From the NCBI GenBank assembly GCA_050015355.1, contig JBEKBO010000017.1, forward strand, positions 359 through 64,358: a DNA stretch of 64,000 bases, in the 5' to 3' direction. This DNA is from Candidatus Korobacteraceae bacterium (GTDB taxonomy: Bacteria > Acidobacteriota > Terriglobia > Terriglobales > Acidobacteriaceae). The position numbers and the translations under genes are program-made. Shown one piece after another: positions 4,398-62,072 of this stretch (positions within the stretch are counted from its first letter, which is position 1; every line of letters begins with the position of its first letter). The notes beneath the pieces are model-generated. The model was not told the origin of the DNA and made no database searches. It saw only the letters and a list, made by a program, of their open reading frames with translations.

Positions 4398-5351
4398 GTG
4401 AAACACAGAAAGCTGGGGAAATCGGAGCTGCAAGTTTCGGTCGTTGGGCTGGGATGCAACAACTTTGGATTCGTCGCGAACATGGATGTCGAGTCATCGC
4501 GCAAAGTCATCGATAAGGCGATCGAGGTGGGCATCAATTTTTTCGACACGTCGGACAGCTACGGCACCTCGGAAGAGATACTGGGCGAAGTGCTGGGTGA
4601 ACGGCGGAAGAAGATCGTGCTGGCGACCAAGGTGGGAGCGAAGCAGAAGCCCGATGGCGAGAAGAGCGGCGTTTCGCGCAGCTATATTCTGGCCGAGGTG
4701 GAGGAAAGTCTGCGTCGGCTCAGGACCGATTGGATTGACCTTTACCAGATTCACTACCCCGATCCCAAGACTCCGATCGAAGAAACCCTGCGCGCCTTGG
4801 ACGATCTGGTGAAACAAGGGAAAGTCCGCTACATTGGCTGCTCCAACTTCTCAGCCGCTCAACTGAACGAGGCGCAGAAAACCGTCGCGGATAAGAAGCT
4901 CACCAGTCTTGTTTCCAGCCAGGATGAATACAGCCTGTTGGCGCGCACCATCGAGCGCGAGCTGCTGCCGGCGATCGAGCGGCATGGAATGGGAGAGCTT
5001 CCTTACTTTCCGCTGGCGAGTGGGCTGCTTACGGGAAAATACAAGATGGGTCAGCCTGCGCCAACCGGCACACGACTGGAACGGAAACAGGCGTTGGCGG
5101 ATAAGTACCACACTGCCGCTAACCTGGAAAAAGTGGCGCGCCTGGAGCAGTTCGCGACAAAACGCGGCCACACTCTACTGGAGCTGGCATTTAGCTGGCT
5201 ACTCGCGAGACCTGTGGTGGCAAGTGTCATCGCCGGAGCCACCAAGCCAGAACAGATTGAGAAGAACGCCAAAGCCGCGGCGTGGGAGTTGAGCGCCGGG
5301 GAATTGGCGGAGATCGATCGGATCACTCTTGCTGGAGGTCCCGCGCACTAG
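4398..5351 (+). CDS. aldo/keto reductase
   Basis: 317 aa, GTG start. GINFFDTSDSYG, IDLYQIHYPD and YIGCSNF motifs of the AKR superfamily. Confidence 0.9.
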   Translation: MKHRKLGKSELQVSVVGLGCNNFGFVANMDVESSRKVIDKAIEVGINFFDTSDSYGTSEEILGEVLGERRKKIVLATKVGAKQKPDGEKSGVSRSYILAEVEESLRRLRTDWIDLYQIHYPDPKTPIEETLRALDDLVKQGKVRYIGCSNFSAAQLNEAQKTVADKKLTSLVSSQDEYSLLARTIERELLPAIERHGMGELPYFPLASGLLTGKYKMGQPAPTGTRLERKQALADKYHTAANLEKVARLEQFATKRGHTLLELAFSWLLARPVVASVIAGATKPEQIEKNAKAAAWELSAGELAEIDRITLAGGPAH

Positions 5352-5419
5352 GGGTTGCTAGTGTAGTGCGTCAAGCAGATGGGCGTTATTTGAAGGCGGC
5401 TTCGTGCCCTCTTTCGGAT

Positions 5420-5580
5420 GTCATCCTGAGCGAGCCGGGGTCCCCGGCGACGGCCGCTTTTGCCGTTGCTGGGGTGGAGAAGCGAAGGATCTATGCATTT
5501 TTCCTGTGCCGAAATACATAGATTCTTCGCCTCCGCCCGAATAGCTTCTTGCTTCTCAAACGCAACGTGCTCAGAATGAC
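5420..5580. repeat. MITE-like palindromic element, GTCATYCTGAGCG-termini family (copy A)
   Basis: Starts GTCATCCTGAGCG and ends GCTCAGAATGAC (inverted termini). Lies in the convergent gap between the AKR gene and glpD. Contains the GGGGTCCCCG...GCTGGGGTG hairpin module at 5437-5475. Confidence 0.8.
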
Positions 5581-5635
5581 ATCTCCGTTAAGTCATTCGA
5601 CTTGTAACGCACTATCCTAGGTCGATCACCAGTTG

Positions 5636-7297
5636 TTAACCTGCCAACGCCTGCTCGGGCTTCAGGCCGGCCGTGCGCATGGTGCAGGTCAGCTTGAGCG
5701 TATACTCCTGCACCGCCTGCTGGGTCTGCCCGGCCATCCAACCGTGCTCCTGAGCAAGATAAGAGCCCACCAGTGGCGCTGCGGCAATTGCCGAATTCCA
5801 ACTGAACCATTGCAGCCCAATCCGCCGCGCCAGGACGTCTTCGATGGAGGCTGCCATTTCGTAACGAATGCTGTAAACGATCTCCGCCTGGATGCTTGGA
5901 GCGCCTGCCACGATGGGCGCCGCCAGATGCCTGTCCGTCCGCGCCAGTTCGAGAACTTCGACCGCATGGGTCCCGAATTTTTCGCTGAGGTGTTGGGCGG
6001 TGTCCGGGGAGATGTGGAATTTCGGAACCAAGGTGTGCCAAAAAGTTGGTCCGTATCCCTCGGCGCCCGTTAAGCGGAAGTGCTGCGTCTTGCACGGTGA
6101 AACGGCACTCTTCAAGTACTGCTGAACCACATTCACCGCATCCTCGGCCATTGCCCGGTACGTGGTCCACTTACCGCCGAGAACGCTGATGAGTCCGCTG
6201 TCTTGATTCACTTCCACCTCGTGATCTCGAATCAACTTCTTGGTATTGCGCGCATCTCCCGGACTGACCAACGGTCTTAGTCCCGCGATACCGCTCATGA
6301 CCTGATCGATGCTAAAAGGCCGTCTCAAATAACGGTTCAGATGCCTGAGCAAGTACTCCACTTCTTCATGTTTCACCGCCAGTTCATCATCCAGTGCCGC
6401 TTCGTCATCGGTCGTTCCAACCAGAAGCCTGCCCTGCCACGGGATTGCAAAGATCACGCGCCCGTCGTCCGTTTGAGGAATGAGCATCGCATCAAGGCGG
6501 AAGGCCGCCTCCAGGGGAAGCAGAATGTGGATTCCCTTGCTCAGCCGAAGCCGCGGGTGAATGCCGGGATTAGCGAGGCTCCGGACCTGGTCCGAGAATG
6601 GACCTGTGGCATTGACAAAAGCTTTGGCACGCACGGTGAAGCGCTCCTCAGACAATTGGTCTTCCACGTGCGCTTCGCATAGCTTGCCATCTTTGGTTTT
6701 CGCAAAACCGGCGACGCGCGAATAATTGAGCGCGGCTCCTCCGTTCTCGACGAAGGTATTGACGAGCGCAATGCCGTACCTGGCGTCATCGAACTGTCCG
6801 TCTGTATATGCGACAGTCCCCACCAGTCCCGAGGTGTTCAGCATCGGCAGGCGAACCGTGGATTCGTGGACTGAGAGAAAACGGCTAGGGGAAAGCATGC
6901 CTTGCCCGGAAATCCAGTCATAGAGCTTCAGTCCGGCTCTAAAATAATACGCATCGCGGTGGCTGAAGCATGGCACAAGGAGTTCCAGCGGACGAGTGAG
7001 AAACGGGGCATTGTTCAACATCAGCTTGCGTTCACGCAGGGCGCGCCTGACGACACGATATTGGCCGAGATCACAATCCGCAACCGACTGTTGCAGGTAT
7101 CTGACGCCGCCATGCACAAGCTTGGTGGAGGCACTGGAGGTTGCCGAAACAAAGTCGGCGGCGTCCAGCAGAACCGTTCGCAACCCGCGAAGTTCCGCGT
7201 CGAGCGCGCACCCCGCTCCCGTCGCCCCGCCACCGATCACGCAGACATCGAATGTCGTGCTCTTGATATTCTCCATTGCCTCGGAGCGGCTTTTCAT
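5636..7297 (-). CDS. glpD: FAD-dependent glycerol-3-phosphate dehydrogenase
   Basis: FDVCVIGGGATGAGCALDAELRG FAD fold plus STKLVHGGVRYL. Start moved to the ATG at 7297 (MKSRSEAMEN), because the longer ORF (to 7396) runs into the repeated leader element. Confidence 0.9.
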   Translation of the reverse strand: MKSRSEAMENIKSTTFDVCVIGGGATGAGCALDAELRGLRTVLLDAADFVSATSSASTKLVHGGVRYLQQSVADCDLGQYRVVRRALRERKLMLNNAPFLTRPLELLVPCFSHRDAYYFRAGLKLYDWISGQGMLSPSRFLSVHESTVRLPMLNTSGLVGTVAYTDGQFDDARYGIALVNTFVENGGAALNYSRVAGFAKTKDGKLCEAHVEDQLSEERFTVRAKAFVNATGPFSDQVRSLANPGIHPRLRLSKGIHILLPLEAAFRLDAMLIPQTDDGRVIFAIPWQGRLLVGTTDDEAALDDELAVKHEEVEYLLRHLNRYLRRPFSIDQVMSGIAGLRPLVSPGDARNTKKLIRDHEVEVNQDSGLISVLGGKWTTYRAMAEDAVNVVQQYLKSAVSPCKTQHFRLTGAEGYGPTFWHTLVPKFHISPDTAQHLSEKFGTHAVEVLELARTDRHLAAPIVAGAPSIQAEIVYSIRYEMAASIEDVLARRIGLQWFSWNSAIAAAPLVGSYLAQEHGWMAGQTQQAVQEYTLKLTCTMRTAGLKPEQALAG

Positions 7298-15651: not shown

Positions 15652-16638
15652 TCAGGAGTTTTGTGGACGGCTGAAATCCGGCAGGTGCACGAGGTCTTCT
15701 CGCGGCACGTCTTCCACGGGGTATCCAGCTTTGCGCCAAGCCGCGAGACCGCCGTTGATCACAAATGCATTGAATGCTCTTTCCCGCAGTAAATGCGCCA
15801 CCCGGGCGCTGGTCGCTTCGCGCAGTCAGGTGCAGTACAGATAGATGTCCTTGTCATGGGCGAGGCGCTTGATCTCTTCCTCCAGGTTATTGGGTTCGAT
15901 GCGAATTGACCCCTGGATGCGCGCGGCGCCGGAGTCGTAGTAACCATGACTACGAACATCGACCACAAGGATCTTGTCCGATCCTTCGGAATGAAGCCTC
16001 TTCGCCAGCTCGTCCACTTGCACGCGGGGCACGACGCGGTATATGCGGCCCTTGCGGTAGAGCAGCATGCGATAGACGACGAACGCGCCGATGGCGGCGG
16101 CCATAACGATCCCGACCGCGTGCCCGGCGACTTGAAAACCGCGGGTGAGGACGACAATAAAGTCATGGAAGAGAAACCCGACACCGCCATACCCCAGGAC
16201 CCATAAGCTGATCCCAATGAGATCGAGCAATACAAACTGGGCAAAGGGCATCTTCATGCTTCCGGCCAGCGGTGGAACCATCGCGCTGACGCCGGGGATG
16301 AACTTGGCGATGATCAGCGTTGTCCGGCCACGCTTGTAGAACGACTCGGCGGATCGCAGGATGCAGGTCTCCGGATTCATGGAAACCTTGCACATGAACC
16401 CCAAAAGTCCCCAGCCCATGTAGCGGCCCAGAACGAAGAGCAGCGAATCGCCCAGCAGCATCGCCGCAAGCGCAACGAGAAACACTGCCGGGGCTTTCAG
16501 GGCTCCTGATGCCGCCGCCGCTCCGCTTCCCACCAACGTCAGCGAGGCCGGCACCGGCACCCCGAGCGACCCCACAAAGACGATCGAGGAGATAATGATG
16601 TAGCCGTGTTGCGCAATCCGGGATAATAAGGCGCCCAT
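15652..16638 (-). CDS. DedA-family membrane domain fused to a rhodanese domain, interrupted by an in-frame TGA at 15826-15828
   Basis: ORF 15826..16638 ends ...DKDIYLYCT-TGA. The same frame continues LREATSARVAHLLRERAFNAFVINGGLAAWRKAGYPVE to a TGA at 15652-15654, which is the missing C-terminal half of a rhodanese fold. Confidence 0.75.
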
Positions 16639-16736
16639 AGGGAGGTGATCCTACTTGTTTGCAGGCCCCTGTCTACTGTTCTATTTCTATCAGGTTTGCG
16701 GCCCCGTGTGGGTAGCCGGGGCATTTGGGAGTAACT

Positions 16737-17528
16737 TCAATTCCCAGGTCTGGCTTTTTTTGCCGGGGTGATCTTGGCAACTTTTTTCTGTCCTCCGCCT
16801 CGCAGAGGATCGGCCGGCTGATATCCGAGCCCGGTCGATAATAGCTCCACCAGCTTCGCCAGCACCTTAGTCCTTGCCCAGTACTTGTCGTTTCCCTCCA
16901 CCAGGCACCAGGGCGCCCCACTCGTGCTGGTCTTCACCAGCATCTCCTCGACGGCTTCCGCGTACGCGCCCCACTTGTCGCGATTCCTCCAGTCCTCATC
17001 CGTGAGCTTCCATGCTTTGTAGCCAACAGCTTTGCGCTCTTCGAAGCGTCGAAGCTGTTCCTCGCGGGAGATATGGATCCAGAACTTTGCCAGGATTGTT
17101 CCAAAATCACGCAATTGCCGCTCGAAGGAATTGATCTCCTTGAAGGCTCGCTTCCATTCCGCCTCGGTGGCGAATCCTTCCACGCGCTCCACCAGTACCC
17201 GGCCGTACCAGGAGCGATCGAAGATCGCCATCTGCCCTCGCTCCGGCAGCCGCCTCCAGAATCGGTAAAGATAATGCCGGGTCTTGTCTTCCCCTTGCGG
17301 AGCGCTGATCGGATAGACGACATAGCCGCGCGGGTCCAGTTTTTCGGTAACTCGCTTGATGACGCCGCCTTTGCCGGCCGCGTCCCAGCCTTCGAACAAG
17401 ACGATCACGGGACGCTGTTGCAGGTAGATCTGGTATCCAAGCTCACGGAGTTGAATCTGCCGCCGCGCCAGCTCGCGCACGTAGGCCTCGCGATCGAGCG
17501 TGCGGGTCAGATCCATTCTTTCCAGCAT
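16737..17528 (-). CDS. polyphosphate kinase 2 family protein
   Basis: VIVLFEGWDAAGKGGVIKRV Walker A-like motif and the FDRSWYGRVLVERV lid motif. Confidence 0.9.
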   Translation of the reverse strand: MLERMDLTRTLDREAYVRELARRQIQLRELGYQIYLQQRPVIVLFEGWDAAGKGGVIKRVTEKLDPRGYVVYPISAPQGEDKTRHYLYRFWRRLPERGQMAIFDRSWYGRVLVERVEGFATEAEWKRAFKEINSFERQLRDFGTILAKFWIHISREEQLRRFEERKAVGYKAWKLTDEDWRNRDKWGAYAEAVEEMLVKTSTSGAPWCLVEGNDKYWARTKVLAKLVELLSTGLGYQPADPLRGGGQKKVAKITPAKKARPGN

Positions 17529-18331: not shown

Positions 18332-18544
18332 CGCTGGAAGCTGCCCGCTAAGCTGCGCCGCACCAAAACTTGAATACAGGATTGTACACGCGTTACAGCG
18401 CCCCATCGGCCATAATCAGCGGTCCCAACATGTCTGCCCGGAACGTCTGCCCCAACACGCGCAAACGCGGCGCGTGCCGGGGACCCCCAGAACCGGGCAG
18501 AGCACGGCGCCGTAGCTAGAGTAGTGTCCCGAAAGTTGAGGACA

Positions 18545-18693
18545 CAACTCAGGTGTCATGCTGAGCGCAGCGAAGCATACCAGGAAACTGTCCCACCCCG
18601 CGCCGCCATGGGCTTTTTGATGAAATCCTGCGGCTGCCCTTCAGCCCCATGCCGCGCTGGGATTCTTCGCTCCCCTCGGTCGCTCAGAATGAC
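18545..18693. repeat. MITE-like palindromic element, GTCATYCTGAGCG-termini family (copy B)
   Basis: GTCATGCTGAGCGCAGCGAAGC...GGTCGCTCAGAATGAC. Collinear, with a high match by eye, with copy D at 57280..57481. Confidence 0.8.
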
Positions 18694-18736
18694 ACCCCAA
18701 CCATTTATTTTATTACGCGAACTTCCGAGACAGACC

Positions 18737-19297
18737 CTAGGGAAGGGAAGTCAGAGTTCCCCCACTCCGCAACCGGCGTTCGGCATCGTCGTCGGCATAT
18801 GCGGCGACGATCTCGCCATGGTAGAACCGGTGGAAATCTCCCTTAGGGTAGCATTGGTCGCGCACGGATTGCGCCAGTGCTTCCGGTACCAAGTCGTTGC
18901 GGTGCAGAATCCGGCATTCGTAATGCACAACGCACTCCTTGATGATCGGCGATCGCACCTCCCGGCTTGGAAGCGGCGTTAACTGGGACTCTTTGAATTT
19001 GTCGTGCTCTCGTCCCGATATCTTTCCGCAGTGCGCCGCGGCTGCCGAAAGCTCCGCGGGAGGCACATTGACGGTGAAGTCGCTGATCTGTTCCAGCCGG
19101 CTGTAACTATGCCGAGAGGGTCTCACCAGCACGGTGAATACGGGGCGAGACCAGACTGTCCCGATCATTCCCCAGCCAATGGTCATCACATTGGGCTTGC
19201 CGTCTGCTCCCATCGAAACCAGTAACAAGCCATCTTCCCGCAATCGCTGCATGGTCAGGGCAAATAGATCCGTGTACTGTATCTGGACTTTGGGCAT
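18737..19297 (-). CDS. flavin reductase-like, FMN-binding domain protein
   Basis: NVMTIGWG...FTVLVRPSRHSY...FTVNVP pattern of the flavin reductase/DIM6 family. Start placed at the ATG at 19297 (MPKVQIQ). Confidence 0.75.
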   Translation of the reverse strand: MPKVQIQYTDLFALTMQRLREDGLLLVSMGADGKPNVMTIGWGMIGTVWSRPVFTVLVRPSRHSYSRLEQISDFTVNVPPAELSAAAAHCGKISGREHDKFKESQLTPLPSREVRSPIIKECVVHYECRILHRNDLVPEALAQSVRDQCYPKGDFHRFYHGEIVAAYADDDAERRLRSGGTLTSLP

Positions 19298-24235: not shown

Positions 24236-24519
24236 TTCTTTACCTCCCGCGGTGGGTTTCGGTGGCCAAGATTGCAAATCCAGTCACAAACCCGTTGCGT
24301 CAGCAGCGCACACAAATGACTTGCTCTGGTGTAACGGCAGGAGCATAGAACGATCGGGGAAGAGAGGCAAGAGAATGTCTGGACGAATGAGCCGAAATTT
24401 CCGTTTTGGCATGCCTTTTATGGTTTGCAACTCTTTCCGCGGGGAGTGGTCATGGCTGGCCGGTTCATCGTCGATACTGGTGTCGCGTCCCAGGAAATTC
24501 GCGCAATATCCCTTTGGAG

Positions 24520-24671
24520 TGTCATTCTGAGCAAGTACCGCGAGCGAAGTTGAGGCGTTGAGGCGGCGTCTGAGCCGCCTGCCGAAATCCTGAGCGGAGC
24601 GAAGGAACTCGGAAGCCGGGAGCGGCGCGGGGTGAAAGTCTCCTGGGATCCTTCGCTTCGCTCAGGATGAC
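24520..24671. repeat. MITE-like palindromic element, GTCATYCTGAGCG-termini family (copy C)
   Basis: GTCATTCTGAGCAAG...CGCTTCGCTCAGGATGAC. Contains the roughly 60-nt module GAAGTTGAGGCGTTGAGGCGGCGTCTGAGCCGCCTGCCGAAATCCTGAGCG, also found at 57397-57458 (inverted) and 59299-59359. Confidence 0.8.
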
Positions 24672-24708
24672 ATCCTGGGACTTATGCAGCGAACTTACGG
24701 GACAGGTC

Positions 24709-25488
24709 CTAGTCGCCACGTTCGTAGGACAACGATTCTGCTGACACGTGCCGGCCGAGGCTGGAACGGTCCACCAGGAAGGCACGCTCAAGCAGGTCGG
24801 GCCGCAGCACTTCAGCCGCGGGGCCGGCGATCGATACAGCCTCGGGTGTGAGCAGAATCACCGACGAAAAATTTTCGCGAACGAGAGCGAGATCGTGCAT
24901 CGCGGCGATGATGGTGATGCCACTGTCATTCAGTGTCCGCAGCAATCCCATCAGTTCAATTTGACGTCCGAGATCGAGGTGTTGCGTAGGCTCGTCGAGC
25001 ATCATTACCTTGGGCTGCTGGGCCAGCCCGATGGCGATCTTCACCCGTTGTCGCTCGCCGCCCGATAGATCCGAATATGCGCGCTCGCGCAGGCCCAGGA
25101 TATCGACCGCTTGCATTGCGCTCTCGACGACTTCGAAATCGCGGGCGGAGGGGCCGGCGAAGCGCCGCAGGTGCGGCACACGTCCTTGAGCTACGATTTC
25201 TTCCACTTGAAATGCGAATGGGACATCGAGGTGCTGGGGGACGAGCGCCGCATAGCACGACAGCTCGCGCCGGCTCCACGACTCCAGCCCGCGCCCCTGC
25301 AAAAGGACCGTACCCGATGTTGGGCGGAGAAGGCCGGCAACGATTTTCAGCAGTGTGGTCTTACCGACGCCGTTTGGGCCCACCAGCGCAATCATCTCCC
25401 GCTCTTCGATACGAAAGTTCAGATCGTCGAAGATAGCGCGCTCTCCGTGCGTGAAACGCACGTTGCGGAACTCGATCACGGCAGGCAC
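24709..25488 (-). CDS. btuD: ABC transporter ATP-binding protein, FecE/BtuD type
   Basis: GPNGVGKTT, LSGGERQRVKIA and MMLDEPTQHLD motifs. The symbol rests only on the upstream B12 riboswitch. Confidence 0.8.
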   Translation of the reverse strand: MPAVIEFRNVRFTHGERAIFDDLNFRIEEREMIALVGPNGVGKTTLLKIVAGLLRPTSGTVLLQGRGLESWSRRELSCYAALVPQHLDVPFAFQVEEIVAQGRVPHLRRFAGPSARDFEVVESAMQAVDILGLRERAYSDLSGGERQRVKIAIGLAQQPKVMMLDEPTQHLDLGRQIELMGLLRTLNDSGITIIAAMHDLALVRENFSSVILLTPEAVSIAGPAAEVLRPDLLERAFLVDRSSLGRHVSAESLSYERGD

Positions 25489-27508: not shown

Positions 27509-27629
27509 ATCTTCTCCGCAAACTCGGTCAGGCGGGATTTCCGTAAGGGCGGCTTCCTTAGACCTCGTCTCGGTCGCCGGAGATGCTCGTCGGCTCTCCC
27601 ATCGAAGCCGAACTGGCCATGGACACGTA

Positions 27630-27785
27630 TCTGGCCGGTCTCCTGACTTGCGCGTCGGCGGTGCGAACCACCTTCCCAGAGAACAGCTACTCCAGTGGCT
27701 TTAATTGTTCGCACCTCAGCGCTCACAGTTGCGGGGCAGTGGCGGCATCTCACCGCGCTTCCCTTTGCCAGATGCGCTGTTATAG
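27630..27785 (-). ncRNA. cobalamin (B12) riboswitch
   Basis: Minus strand reads ...GGCAAAGGGAAGCGCGGTGAGATGCCGCCACTGCCCCGCAACTGTGAGC...AAAGCCACTGGAG...GGGAAGGTGG...AGTCAGGAGACCGGCC. It contains the GGGAA/GGTGAGA core, GCCACTG, and a B12 box (AGTCAGGAGACCGGCC), about 120 nt upstream of the SBP gene start. Confidence 0.85.
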
Positions 27786-27939
27786 CTCCAATCATGCGGA
27801 GGTGTCAATCAGAACCGCAAGGGCCGTGATGCGCGAATCGCCTGCCCGGTTTCGACATGCCGGGGGATTCGATCCGTTCATGAAAGCGAGAGGCCAAGCG
27901 CGATGCCTGGCCTCTTGAGTCTTGGAACTGGACGCGGGA

Positions 27940-36341: not shown

Positions 36342-39300
36342 ATGAAGGCAACTTCAGTGTGCGACGACAGGCCGGGTGAAAAGGGCGTCTCTTTGCTGGC
36401 CAGAGCCGCATCGCCCATCAGGCTCCTGGTGTTTCTGTCCGCTGTCTGCCTCGCCACTGCCGCCGCTCAGGATCGGAATACTCCGCCTCCGCCGAACGCC
36501 AATCAGCCGCCAACGTCGCAAGCGACGATTCAGAAGCTGCCTGCGGGATTTGTGGCCCGCGTCGAGTTGCGCGGTACCGCCATGGGGACGGCGCCCTACG
36601 TCGTCGCTTTGATCGAGCAGAATCCCGGCACCGCCGTGGACCGCGATGCCATTCGCCGGAGCATTCGGCGGCTTTATGAGACGCGGCTGTTCGAAACCAT
36701 CGATGTTGTCTGGCAACCCGCCGAAGCCGGGCAGATCAATCTTATCTTCGAAACCACGCCCAGGTACTTCTGTGGATCGCTTTCGGTCGATGGTTTACCC
36801 AAGGATGGGCCGCGCCTGAATGAAATGATTGCCTCGGCCAGCCTGGAGCTCGGGACTCACTACTCGCCGGAACGGATCTCGCAGACCCTGGAGCGCATGC
36901 ACCGCCTGCTGGAAGAACACGGCTACTATCAGGCCCAGCTCACTTACCAGGAGTTTCCGGTTCCCGCGCTGCAGCAGATGAACGTCAAGTTCCATGTTGT
37001 TCCGGGCAGCATAACGCACGTCGGCCGGGTGACTCTCGCGGGCGATTCCGACCTCGCTCTCGACGACATCGAAGACTTCGCCGACATTCGGCCCGGCGAC
37101 AAGGTTCAGAGGGGCCAGATTCAACGTGCTCTCCAACGGCTGCGCAAGCGCTTCCAAAAGGGCAGGCGCTTGACGGCGCAGGTCGGAATCGCCCATTCGT
37201 ACAACGCGGCAAACAATACCCTCGACTACACCATCGAGGTGCGGCGCGGGCCCGAGGTCCACATCATGACCGAGGGCACGAAGTTAACCCGGGGCCAGTT
37301 GAAGAGATATGTCCCGGTCTTCCAGGAGGGGGCGGTCGACGAGGACCTGCTCAACGAGGGACGCCGCAATCTGCGGGATTTTTTCCAGACCGAGGGGTTT
37401 TTCGACGCGAAAGTCAACGTGCGGGAAGAGCGGGAAGACGGCGCCGTCAAAGTCGTCTATCAGGTGGATCGCGGCGCGAGGCATAGTCTGTTCGGCATCA
37501 GGATAGAAGGCAACAAATACTTCGACAGCCGAACCATACGCGAGCGCTTGTCTCTACAGCCGGCAAGTTGGATGCAGCCGCATGGCCGTTTCAGTCAGGC
37601 GATCCTCGCCGTCGACGTTTCGGCGATCAAAAACCTTTACGTGGCGAACGGGTTTCCTAAGGTGGAGGTCGTGGCGAATGTCGTCGACGACTATGAAAGC
37701 GATCCGCGACGATTGTTCGTCGATTTCCGGATCGTGGAAGGGCAGCAGATGCTGGTGCGGAGTCTCACGATCGCCGGAAACAAGGCTTTTCCGACGGAGC
37801 TGCTCCAACGCAATCTTTACATTGTGCCCGGCCAGCCGTATTCAGAGATGAACGTCGCCACCGATCGCGATACCCTGGTCAACTTCTATTTCAACAATGG
37901 ATTTCCCCAGGTGCAGTTCGAAGTTACCGCGAAACCGAGTGAGACCGATCCCCGGCGTATCGATGTCGCCTATAAGATCACTGAAGGTGAACGAATTTAC
38001 GTCGAGAATGTGGTTGCTTCGGGACTGGTGCATACGCGGCAGAGCGTGGTGGACCGCCGGTTCAGCATCCGTGACGGGGAGCCGCTCGACCAGGCGAAGA
38101 TGGTCGAGACGCAATCCCGCTTGTACGACCTCGGAATTTTCAACGAAGTGAACATGGCGGTGCAGAATCCCGGCGGGCAAATCGACCATAAGAACTTGCT
38201 CTATCAAATCCAGGAGGCCCGGCGCTACACGGTTCAGTTCGGCGGCGGTATAGAATTCTCAACCGGCAATCAGCCTGGCAGCAACCCTCAGGGGAATACC
38301 GGCGTTAGTCCCACGGTATCTTTCAATGTCACGCGCATCAATTTTCGCGGGCGAGACGAGTCGCTGATCCTTAGGACGCAAGTAGGGGAACTGATCAAGC
38401 GCGTTCTGCTCAGCTTCGACCAGCCGCACTGGTTCGATCTGCCCAAGTGGCATTTCACAGCCACGTTTTTATACGACAATACGCGCGACGTGAATACGTT
38501 CACGGCGCAGCGGCTGGGCGGCTCGCTTCAATTGGAGCAGCGTGTTTCGCGCGCCAACCGTCTGTTTTATGCTTTCAGCTACCGCCAAGACAAAGTTGAT
38601 CCGAGCAGCTTTCCGGCCGGCTTCAGCCAGGACCTGCTGAATATCTATGCCGTTCCGGTGCGTATCGGAATGCCTAGCGTCACCTTCGTCCGGGATACGC
38701 GTGACGATCCGGTCGACTCGACCAAAGGAATTTACACCACGGCGGATTTTGGCGTAGCGACAGGAGCCTTGGGCTCGGAGGCGAACTTCGGGCGTGTGCT
38801 CGTGCAGAATACAACCTATCATCGCTTCCGGAACAAATATGTCTTTGCGCGCTCAACCCGCATCGGGGTCGAATCGCCTTACAACACCTCCAGCGTGGTC
38901 CCCCTGCCGGAGCACTTTTTCGCCGGCGGCAGCACTTCCTTGCGAGGATTCGCCGTCAACCAGGCGGGACCGCGCGATCAGTTTTCAGGGTTTCCGGTCG
39001 GCGGGAACGCCATGTTTGTCAATAACCTGGAGCTGCGTGCTCCGCCCGTGCGCTTGCCGCTCGTCGGTCCGGGATTCAGTTTCGTTGTCTTTCACGACAT
39101 GGGGAACGTCTTCGACACCGCCGACCACATGTGGAGCAATCTGTTGCGCTTCTCGCAACGTAACCAGCAAGGCTGCAGAAGCCTGACGTCACCATGCGAT
39201 TTCAGCTACATGTCGCAAGCGCTTGGCGGCGGAGTACGCTACCATACGCCGATCGGACCTTTGCGGCTCGATTTTGGCTACAATCTAAATCCGGCGTACT

Positions 39301-57220: not shown

Positions 57221-57279
57221 GAATGGTCGTCCTGCGTGCGCAGTTGCGCTAGGGTGCGGTGTCCCGGAAATACTACTCT

Positions 57280-57481
57280 GTCATGTTGAGCGCAGCGAAA
57301 CATCCCCGGGAAACTGTCCCACTCCGCGCCGCTCTGGGCTCTTTGATAAATTCCTTCGGCTGTGCCTCAGCTCACGCCGCGCTGGGATTTCGGGTTCCTT
57401 CGCTTCGCTCAGGATTTCGGCAGGCGGCTCAGACGCCGCCTCAACGCCTCAACTTCGCTCCCTCTGGTCGCTCAGAATGAC
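57280..57481. repeat. MITE-like palindromic element, composite copy D (copy-B-type backbone with a nested 60-nt module)
   Basis: GTCATGTTGAGCGCAGCGAAAC...GGTCGCTCAGAATGAC. Positions about 57397-57458 are the reverse complement of the module at 24545-24606. Confidence 0.8.
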
Positions 57482-57535
57482 ACCCCTAAACCTTTATTGC
57501 CCGAATTTGCGGAACGCACACCAGTTCGCGAAAGA

Positions 57536-61662: not shown

Positions 61663-62072
61663 CTCGACCCTGCTTCCCAGGAGACTTTCCCTGTGAACGC
61701 CCTGTTAATAAATCATAGCCGATCTTCCCGGCAAAATGCGCGTTTAGTTTTTGCGTAGTTTTCGCGACATTTTTCTCAAACTATTCTCCTCGTAAATTCA
61801 GCAGCTTAGCTTCCAAGTAGCACGGAACGGGGTTGACAGGGTTCCACTCGTGCCTGCCGAACGCAATTCCTCATTGGTATATCCAAGAATTTCCTAGGGA
61901 ATGTCATGGCGACCGGAGCGCCGAGCGCCGGTAGAGAAGCAAGAAGCTGTTCGGGCGCGGAGTGGAGCCACCCTTTGTTTTTTTGCTGTAGGGACAAGTA
62001 GGAACAAAAGATGGCTCGACTTCGCTCGCCATGACAGTCTGAGTTTATTTCGGATATTTCACTCGTGCCGCT

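Follow-up and report, generated by a model that had tools for sequence, protein, structure and literature searches.

GTCAT hairpin-pair repeats of an acidobacterial genome: probable composites of IS630-type transposon ends and a divergent class of Ssn nuclease motifs

Introduction

The Ssn nucleases and the motifs associated with them, termed NTS or Ssn-related motifs (SRMs) and including the dRS3 repeat of Neisseria, were described by Chenal et al. (Nat Commun 2025; PMC11893778), and are the closest described counterpart of the GTCAT...ATGAC repeats reported here. The Neisseria NTS repeat is CGTCATTCCCGCGMAVGCGGGAATCYRG, and SsnA, a 94-residue single-domain GIY-YIG protein (cd10448), binds it solely as single-stranded DNA (ssDNA), making its cut a few nucleotides upstream; cutting depends most on the three bases preceding the stem and binding on the C following it, and RNA, double-stranded DNA and the reverse strand are not substrates (PMC11893778). 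Homologs of Ssn are found across phyla, 71% with an SRM nearby and 42% with one on both sides, and the authors point out both the resemblance of the NTS-ssnA-NTS arrangement to an insertion sequence (IS) and a parallel with REP (repetitive extragenic palindromic) elements and their REP-associated tyrosine transposases (RAYTs) (PMC11893778). The repeats that we compare with this system occur in a 64,000-nucleotide stretch (the window) of the genome of a Candidatus Korobacteraceae bacterium (GCA_050015355.1, contig JBEKBO010000017.1, positions 359 to 64,358).

A second type of element is also pertinent. MITEs (miniature inverted-repeat transposable elements) derived from IS630/Tc1-mariner elements, for which TA duplication at CTAG is the signature, are known in bacteria (e.g. 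Nezha of cyanobacteria), and the Correia elements of Neisseria also duplicate TA.

The source genome is referred to as G000 (4.96 Mb in 229 contigs, 58.6% G+C) and the window lies on its contig C17; other G-numbers denote compared genomes, L-numbers extracted loci, and C-numbers contigs.

Results and Discussion

Composite organization of the repeats

Four full copies of the repeat (A to D) are present in the window together with a fifth from a sister subfamily. They are the copies listed, with slightly different coordinates, in an earlier note made from the letters of the window alone, which described the family as dispersed, modular and non-autonomous, with copies B and D collinear, all of which holds. 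The same note took the roughly 13-nt GTCAT/ATGAC sequences to be the mobile termini, and here the data say otherwise. Conservation continues past GTCAT...ATGAC for 35–60 nt on both sides as an inverted repeat, and the boundaries of empty sites lie equally far out; GTCAT...ATGAC are not the ends of the block that moved, and the outer IS630-type inverted repeats at CTAG are. We favor, with moderate confidence, the interpretation that the window copies are two-layer composites, in which a miniature transposon shell of IS630 type encloses an inverted hairpin pair of Ssn/SRM type.

The full copy A composite spans 257 bp (5361–5617) between TA dinucleotides at 5359–5360 and 5618–5619. Its IS630-type ends (5361–5419 and 5581–5617) enclose a 161-bp core (5420–5580), an inverted pair of GTCAT hairpin units (left 5420–5491, right 5521–5580) with a TATGCAT...ATACATA hairpin between them; the left unit has a 55-nt extra module at its tip. 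The ortholog in G006 lacks this module, and its right unit carries a different one of 46 nt. Copy B occupies 219 bp (18519–18737) within a TA target-site duplication (18517–18518 and 18738–18739), and its 139-bp core extends from 18555, rather than 18545 as previously placed, to 18693. The core consists of a left GC-type unit (GTCATGCTGAGCGCAGCGAAGCATA), in which an A replaces the post-stem C conserved in the family, an intervening stretch of about 60 nt at the center, and a right TC-type unit (..CGCTCAGAATGAC). Copy C is about 231 bp long (24479–24709, the left boundary being approximate), with the junction CTG-G...CC-TA and a 151-bp core (24521–24671) in which an additional module of about 60 nt accompanies the inverted unit pair. 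Copy D (57252–57521, about 270 bp) has a TA on its left at 57250–57251 and an approximate right boundary, and its 202-bp core (57280–57481) is of the B type with an extra module of about 60 nt. The fifth copy, at 61903–62035, is a doublet (GTCATGGCGA...TCGCCATGAC) with a module in its left unit; it had been regarded as degenerate (from 61904), and is a full member, of GTCATGGCG type, of a sister subfamily with 190 heads in G000.

Three families of outer ends are recognized: F1 (TA-(A/G)CAGGCTGCTGAAAAAC...), F2 (CTAG.GT..TGTCCCGGAAGTTCGCGCAATAA...) and F3 (CTAGTGTAGTGCGTCACAAGTCGAATAACTTA...). The ends of copies C (GTGTCGCGTCCCAGGAAATTCGC / GCGAACTTACGGGACAGGTCC) and D (GGGTGCGGTGTCCCGGAAATAC / reverse complement ACTGGTGTGCGTTCCGCAAATTCG) are of F2 type. 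A logo of 88 F2 and 10 F3 ends starts at CTAG, and the sequence is random exactly upstream of it. The earlier note had recommended a search for target-site duplications, and they are found only at the outer boundary: immediately outside GTCAT...ATGAC there are none of 3–8 nt, and matches of 1–2 nt are at chance level (5 and 9 of 130), and a clean TA duplication lies outside the shell of copy B.

Comparison with congeneric genomes provides the empty sites. Five congeners have the sequence ..cTAgggaaggg at the copy B site, and the filled site in G000 reads cTA-GAGTAGTGTCCCG...GACAGACCC-TAgggaaggg, an insertion of 219 bp with duplication of TA; in G002 a different subfamily member occupies the same TA. 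Copy C is absent from G006, G005 and G002, where the empty site is ..aaTActggtcgcc, and both B and C are found solely in G000 among the congeners compared. Copy A is present in two of the five genomes compared, G000 and G006 (the closest relative of G000 by identity of the copy A flanks), and absent from the orthologous site in G002, G009 and G008. The orthologous sites without A, B or C also indicate that the copies are dispersed elements rather than pieces of one duplication, as the earlier note proposed. The composites are demonstrably mobile, and copies A, B and C came to their present sites as shell plus core. The site of copy D is occupied by an element in several congeners as well, with differing module content. 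At the loci of G002 and G009 orthologous to window positions ~5350–5640 (L209 and L210), a remnant of a GTCATGGCG-type right unit (..GGTGGCTCGACTCCGCTCGCCATGAC..) is present in place of copy A, and this intergenic region has therefore been hit independently.

Transposase genes with matching ends were sought among the PF13358 (DDE_3) hits across the genus. Locus L163 of G002 contains a 1165-bp IS630-family element with a 382-residue open reading frame (ORF) matching PF13358 and a TA duplication (gcTA-GTGTAGTGCGTCATACAGATTGACGTTTATTCAAGG...-TAgc). Its left end (TA-GTGTAGTGCGTCATACAGATTGACGTT...) is homologous over about 50 nt to that of copy A (gcTA-GTGTAGTGCGTCAAGCAGATGGGCGTTATTTGAAGG; GTGTAGTGCGTCAAGCAGATGGGCGTT...), and its right end matches the first 13 nt of the F3 consensus; for the F2 type of copies B, C and D, nothing beyond a related end was seen, in L169. 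The search for a cognate transposase that the earlier note had recommended was thus productive for the IS630 family, in a congener, and unproductive for RAYT (Y1) genes, which are unlinked to the repeats. The note's statement that the window itself encodes no cognate enzyme agrees with the location of all PF13358 and PF01797 hits of G000 off the window contig, other transposase families not having been searched. The MITE features found among the composites are the TA duplication of copy B, terminal repeats common to a PF13358 IS (F3/copy A type), and polymorphism between close relatives.

Several other IS630-related loci were inspected. Candidate full-length ISs in G000, delimited by F1, F2 or F3 ends 1–3 kb apart, proved to be ordinary genes. 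The sole clear IS630-family transposase gene in the genome (L141, G000:C47:29463-30512) reaches within a few bases of a contig end, such that the 5′ end of the IS is missing; it has a T8 slippery run between two frames, and its visible end (TAGCGTCTTAAGTAATTGCGCATAAT) bears a loose likeness to F2 only. A G004 IS630 element flanked by GTCAT units was considered as a parent element and rejected, as the IS is in fact inserted at a TA inside the repeat; this 1051-bp element (L144:1307-2530, G004:C5) has a frameshifted two-ORF transposase and lies within a GC-type GTCAT element. A separate MITE family in G000 has F1 ends (CTAG-CAGGCTGCTGAAAAAC...GTTTTTCAGCAGCCTG-CTAG) around an unrelated interior of about 95 nt, and also exists in a 55-bp minimal form (examples are at C1:~122-250, C32:~37967-38095 and C15:~16376-16435). 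Because the F1 shell carries such different interiors, shells and cores are separable.

Structure and covariation of the hairpin unit

The units conform to the pattern (T)GTC-ATxyT-GA-(GC-GNA-GC or larger tip)-GA-Ay'x'AT-C, in which the GTC head is succeeded by a stem of 5 bp, GA pairs in tandem and a mini-hairpin with a GNA loop, the stem being followed by a C. Among about 336 units having the closing GAA..AT, the xy and y'x' positions are perfectly complementary in 316, and they are distributed among four stem types: CC/GG (182), TC/GA (79), GC/GC (48) and GT/AC (7). Loop position N is unconstrained (C 53, A 30, T 20, G 7). Of 317 units, 313 have C as the base following the stem and 298 have T as the base preceding GTC. 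Left and right stems differ in 88 of 131 pairs, yet every unit remains self-complementary, and the conserved structure is therefore a local hairpin rather than a pairing of one arm with the other.

Tips vary: some are lengthened by GA-bracketed steps nested within one another, others by the insertion of hairpins of 23–55 nt. One hairpin module of about 55 nt (CCGGGGTCCCCGG..GCCG-TTTT-CGGC..CTGGGGTGG) replaces the GNA loop in many units, including those at window positions 5433–5484 and G000:C29:~16720-16800, and its presence varies between G000 and G006 orthologs. A hammerhead-like core was considered for the CUGA...GAA motifs and discarded on inspection, the would-be core segment pairing instead as the 5-bp stem.

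A GIY-YIG nuclease gene between the units

G000 has at least three small GIY-YIG genes, each enclosed precisely by an inverted pair of units of its own type. The cassette at C107:2374-2725 has the arrangement GTCATCCTGAGCGAAGCGAAGGATCTGC-ORF-GCAGATCCTTCGCTACGCTCAGGATGAC, with the stop codon inside the final ATGAC; that at C158:151-568 has units of GTCATGGCG type, identical in type to the fifth window copy at 61903–62035; and that on C106, truncated by the contig end, has the GC type of copies B and D. Across the genus, about 27 of 29 GIY-YIG homologs are bracketed by units, and the four types of these agree with the doublet subfamilies. The ssn cassette of G005 (L227), for example, has a GC-type unit on the left and a TC-type unit on the right, as does copy B. 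The protein is encoded by a 102-residue ORF with PF01541 as its sole Pfam match, and residues Y5, Y15, G17, H29, E62 and N81 are invariant in the 29 homologs. Its AlphaFold model (pLDDT 93) has a GIY-YIG fold, and the nearest solved structures are UPF0213 BH0048 (1zg2), the nuclease domain of Slx1 and the N-terminal domain of UvrC.

The association extends well beyond the genus. Of 80 metagenome loci, 67 were usable; units with a GTCAT head and a stem of at least 5 bp flank the gene on both sides in 29 of these and on one side in 14, and their stems covary widely (ATCCT, ATTCC, ATTCCCGC, ATCCCCGC, ATCTC and others). All four of the GIY-YIG ORFs found at loci sharing a 25-mer across phyla (see below) adjoin units. 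In a phylum sample of 151 genomes the gene is present in 8 of 12 with units and 16 of 139 without, a descriptive comparison in which relatives are not independent; six of the seven genomes with at least ten units have the gene, and in G054, with 18 units, none was seen. Homologs 54–58% identical to the G000 protein (L315, L313, L341 and L291) have flanks that match the published NTS consensus. A RAYT/Y1 transposase was also considered as the partner of the repeats and rejected: none of the eight PF01797 (Y1_Tnp) hits in G000 has GTCAT units within 1.5 kb. These hits are loci L001–L008, six of them with E <1e-8.

Gene-less pairs and cassettes

Gene-less pairs retain both units of a cassette and the inner stems (GGATCTGC...GCAGATCC), and those of B/D type also keep a stretch of about 60 nt similar to the 5′ leader found in the G000:C106 and G008 cassettes. 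G008 has a B-type pair and a cassette in tandem, with a common 10-nt flank and a common 45-nt unit. Because both ends and part of the leader are kept, these pairs are most likely miniature deletion derivatives of ssn cassettes.

The orthologous site between the housekeeping genes rseP and ispG illustrates the variety of arrangements. There is a 19-nt spacer in G004, shell remnants only in G009, a solo unit in G000 and G001, a full cassette in G002 and G008, a cassette inverted in place in G003, and a larger insert in G005. One locus is thereby seen empty, with a solo hairpin, with a full cassette and with an inverted one. The inverted cassette (L237) has the same flanking genes as those of G002 (L232) and G008 (L236), and the inversion fits either recombination between the inverted terminal units or re-insertion. 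The C107 cassette of G000 is at a different locus from its 82%-identical copies in G002, G008 and G003. Copy A of G000 and its G006 ortholog differ by modules at the tips of the unit hairpins. No clean empty site was obtained for a core without a shell: the corresponding sites in G117, G153 and G129, of another genus, are too diverged, and the rseP–ispG site is layered with remnants.

Abundance and distribution

With one mismatch or fewer, GTCATNNTGAGCG has 11 occurrences in the window where 1.43 would be expected, a number not reached by any of 100 shuffles. The copy number extrapolated in the note, of the order of hundreds, is borne out: G000 contains 295 strict termini, about 131 head-to-head pairs 80–400 bp apart (with size modes at 80–100 and 120–160 bp), and 318 closed hairpin units.

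The exact 25-mer GTCATCCTGAGCGNAGCGAAGGATC occurs in at least 120 species genomes among the matches listed, and these belong to the Acidobacteriota, Chloroflexota, Bacteroidota, Bacillota, Planctomycetota, Verrucomicrobiota, Gemmatimonadota, Nitrospirota, Omnitrophota, Patescibacteria and Proteobacteria. In the other phyla it is again found mainly as inverted pairs, and the acidobacterial shells are absent from the matches listed. Viral contigs contain it as well, in 64 stretches. Truncated heads (TGTCATCCTGAGC plus 5–40 nt) were observed as short tandem arrays in other phyla (L031, L045, L083 and L088) and in G002 (L232:1409-1460), immediately upstream of a full unit; such arrays could have been left by successive rounds of cutting and repair at the head. 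A literature search yielded no match to the exact sequence of the repeat or its spurious peptide, and no report tying GIY-YIG to COG2827, YhbQ or REP.

A model for the composites and its alternatives

We suggest the following model. The outer layer is a miniature transposon of IS630/Tc1-mariner type, with inverted ends of about 22–60 nt beginning at a CTAG site, which an IS630-family transposase supplied in trans has presumably moved. The inner layer is an inverted pair of small DNA hairpins, probably of a divergent SRM/NTS class, which would serve as ssDNA binding sites of Ssn. By analogy with the Neisseria enzyme, each unit would fold locally when the DNA becomes single-stranded, during replication, repair, conjugation or transformation, and a resident Ssn would bind the folded unit and make its cut a few nucleotides to the 5′ side of the GTC head; a pair would then be cut just outside each of its ends, once per strand. 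From that analogy we infer such binding and cutting by the resident nucleases. Carriage within IS630-type shells is, we also infer, among the ways in which the motifs have spread in this genus.

The assignment of the GTCAT units to the known Ssn/SRM system, probably as a divergent motif class, rests on architecture and protein homology, since no unit fits the published SRM pattern. Novel features are the variant motif with its covariation, the fact that this pattern does not detect it, the tight doublet form, and carriage within polymorphic IS630-type MITEs.

A number of observations weigh against this interpretation. First, the canonical units do not match the published SRM pattern (HGTCWYN(0-2)YYVSBRHN(0-5)WNVSBRGN(0-2)RNCYNB), which has no match in the window and 38 in G000, compared with 44–57 in shuffled sequences; any match at all is present in just 12 of the 80 metagenome loci. 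The nearest solved structure of the protein is that of a UPF0213 protein. Secondly, nearest-neighbor folding of a whole pair as ssDNA favors one long hairpin, an isolated unit having a folding energy of only -2.7 kcal/mol. Thirdly, the transposition evidence is uneven among the copies: the clean TA duplication is that of copy B, the duplication at copy C is imperfect (TG on the left, TA on the right), and the empty sites of copy A are too diverged for a target duplication to be read. The best relative of copy B within the genome is 87% identical, and its donor copy was not found; nor does the G000 assembly contain an IS630 transposase flanked by matching ends, and tblastn with the G002 transposase as query returned nothing. 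Lastly, 30 of 129 pairs have no recognized shell and 55 of 129 have one on a single side. Given these shell-less pairs, and the shell-less copies in other phyla, the shells are not the sole route of spread.

The shell-less pairs, in G000, in many phyla and on viral contigs, speak for a different account, in which the SRM-ssn-SRM cassette is itself an autonomous mobile element and the gene-less pairs are REPIN-like copies multiplied by the GIY-YIG nuclease. The shells would then be incidental neighbors or preferred landing sites, the palindromic centers of MITEs offering a hairpin tip. The cassette does have an IS-like architecture, an analogy raised by Chenal et al. themselves (PMC11893778), and gene-less copies are about 50 times as numerous as those with the gene. 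The separate locus of the C107 cassette, the in-place inversion in G003, the gain or loss of modules at hairpin tips between orthologous copies, and the other cargo carried by shells all accord with it. We nonetheless regard this account as doubtful. The GIY-YIG domain is hydrolytic and is not known to transfer strands, neither a clean empty site nor a target duplication could be defined for a shell-less core, and in all three copies whose empty sites are readable, shell and core moved together; in addition, the unit-rich G054 shows no gene.

A role in RNA, with the elements kept as terminators, mRNA 3′-end stabilizers or processing sites, is a good deal less probable, and we consider it very unlikely. 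The elements are nearly always intergenic and their predicted folds are strong (z -3.8 to -7.1), and there is some excess between convergent genes: with crude gene calls, 106 copies are distributed as 50 tandem, 35 convergent and 21 divergent, against about 54, 25 and 27 expected from intergenic length. However, 21 of these copies lie between divergent genes, no hairpin-plus-T-run site exists in copies A, B or C on either strand, and as the elements are near-palindromic both strands fold alike. None of the repeats in the window is matched by Rfam at the gathering threshold, and for copy B there is no meaningful match at E up to 10. RNA is not a ligand of the Neisseria Ssn (PMC11893778). The use as terminators or mRNA stabilizers that the earlier note proposed from the position of copies at gene ends is accordingly unsupported, placement at gene 3′ ends being barely above the intergenic-length expectation. 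The same Rfam search identifies a cobalamin riboswitch (RF00174, 92 bits) on the reverse strand at 27616–27787.

That the copies are plain IS630-derived MITEs whose GTCAT core is functionless filler from one ancestral copy is scarcely credible, for although the TA/CTAG ends, the empty sites and the matching full-length IS in a congener are as this would predict, identical units lie in three unrelated shell families and outside any shell, and the idea is already largely refuted by the covariation of the stems, the exact 25-mer common to more than ten phyla among the matches listed, and the bracketing of nuclease genes.

Implications

Beyond the composite interpretation of the window copies, we speculate tentatively that SRM-ssn-SRM cassettes represent a distinct class of selfish DNA, built around a nuclease specific for both structure and sequence of ssDNA, whose gene-less pairs multiply and cross phyla, partly via IS630-type MITEs. 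Passage between phyla is suggested by the sharing of the exact 25-mer across so many of them and by its presence on viral contigs. If this is true, it would answer a question left open in the description of Ssn, namely how the motifs expand to hundreds of copies. The composites would in any case exemplify one concrete way of spreading, in which the motifs are carried by TA-inserting miniature transposons that vary from one sister species to another.

The natural covariation indicates that the GTC head, a 5-bp stem irrespective of its sequence, the tandem GA and the post-stem C are what counts in the hairpin. As the motif class is invisible to the published pattern, surveys that rely on it report too few instances of the system in soil phyla. 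For annotation, we note that the repeats account for common spurious ORFs (..VILSEAKD.. and similar) in the Acidobacteriota and other phyla.

Comparison with known systems

The resemblance to the Ssn system is seen in both the protein and the repeats. The enzyme is a single-domain GIY-YIG protein of about 90–100 residues with conserved Tyr, Tyr and Glu that match the mutated Y6, Y17 and E64 of Ssn, and its gene is bracketed by inverted hairpin repeats (on both sides at C107 and C158, with C106 truncated). The units have a GTCAT head, a stem-loop and a C directly after the stem, the positions found to be critical in NTS (PMC11893778), and in both systems there are hundreds of repeats per genome, nearly all extragenic. 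The differences lie mostly in the repeat. The stem here is of 5 bp (ATxyT), with tandem G-A pairs and a GC-GNA-GC mini-hairpin or larger module, whereas that of NTS is a 7–8-bp TCCCGCG; the dominant form is a tight inverted pair of 80–200 bp; many pairs are within IS630-type MITE shells; and the host is an acidobacterium.

The composites resemble IS630/Tc1-mariner MITEs in being small and intergenic, with terminal inverted repeats, insertion at the TA within CTAG, and no transposase of their own. They are unlike them in that the interior is not a remnant of a parent IS, and is instead a hairpin pair of putative nuclease-recognition type that is also found free of shells.

With the REP/REPIN-RAYT systems and bacterial interspersed mosaic elements (BIMEs) (PMC3116915, PMC2817692, PMC3733652), the repeats share short hairpins with a conserved 5′ tag, the inverted doublet as a unit, mosaics with other modules, and a low-copy enzyme gene flanked by the same hairpins. 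The enzyme, however, is a GIY-YIG hydrolase rather than a Y1 protein of the HUH type, the eight Y1 genes of G000 being without flanking units, and the tag is GTC(AT) rather than GTAG or CGTC.

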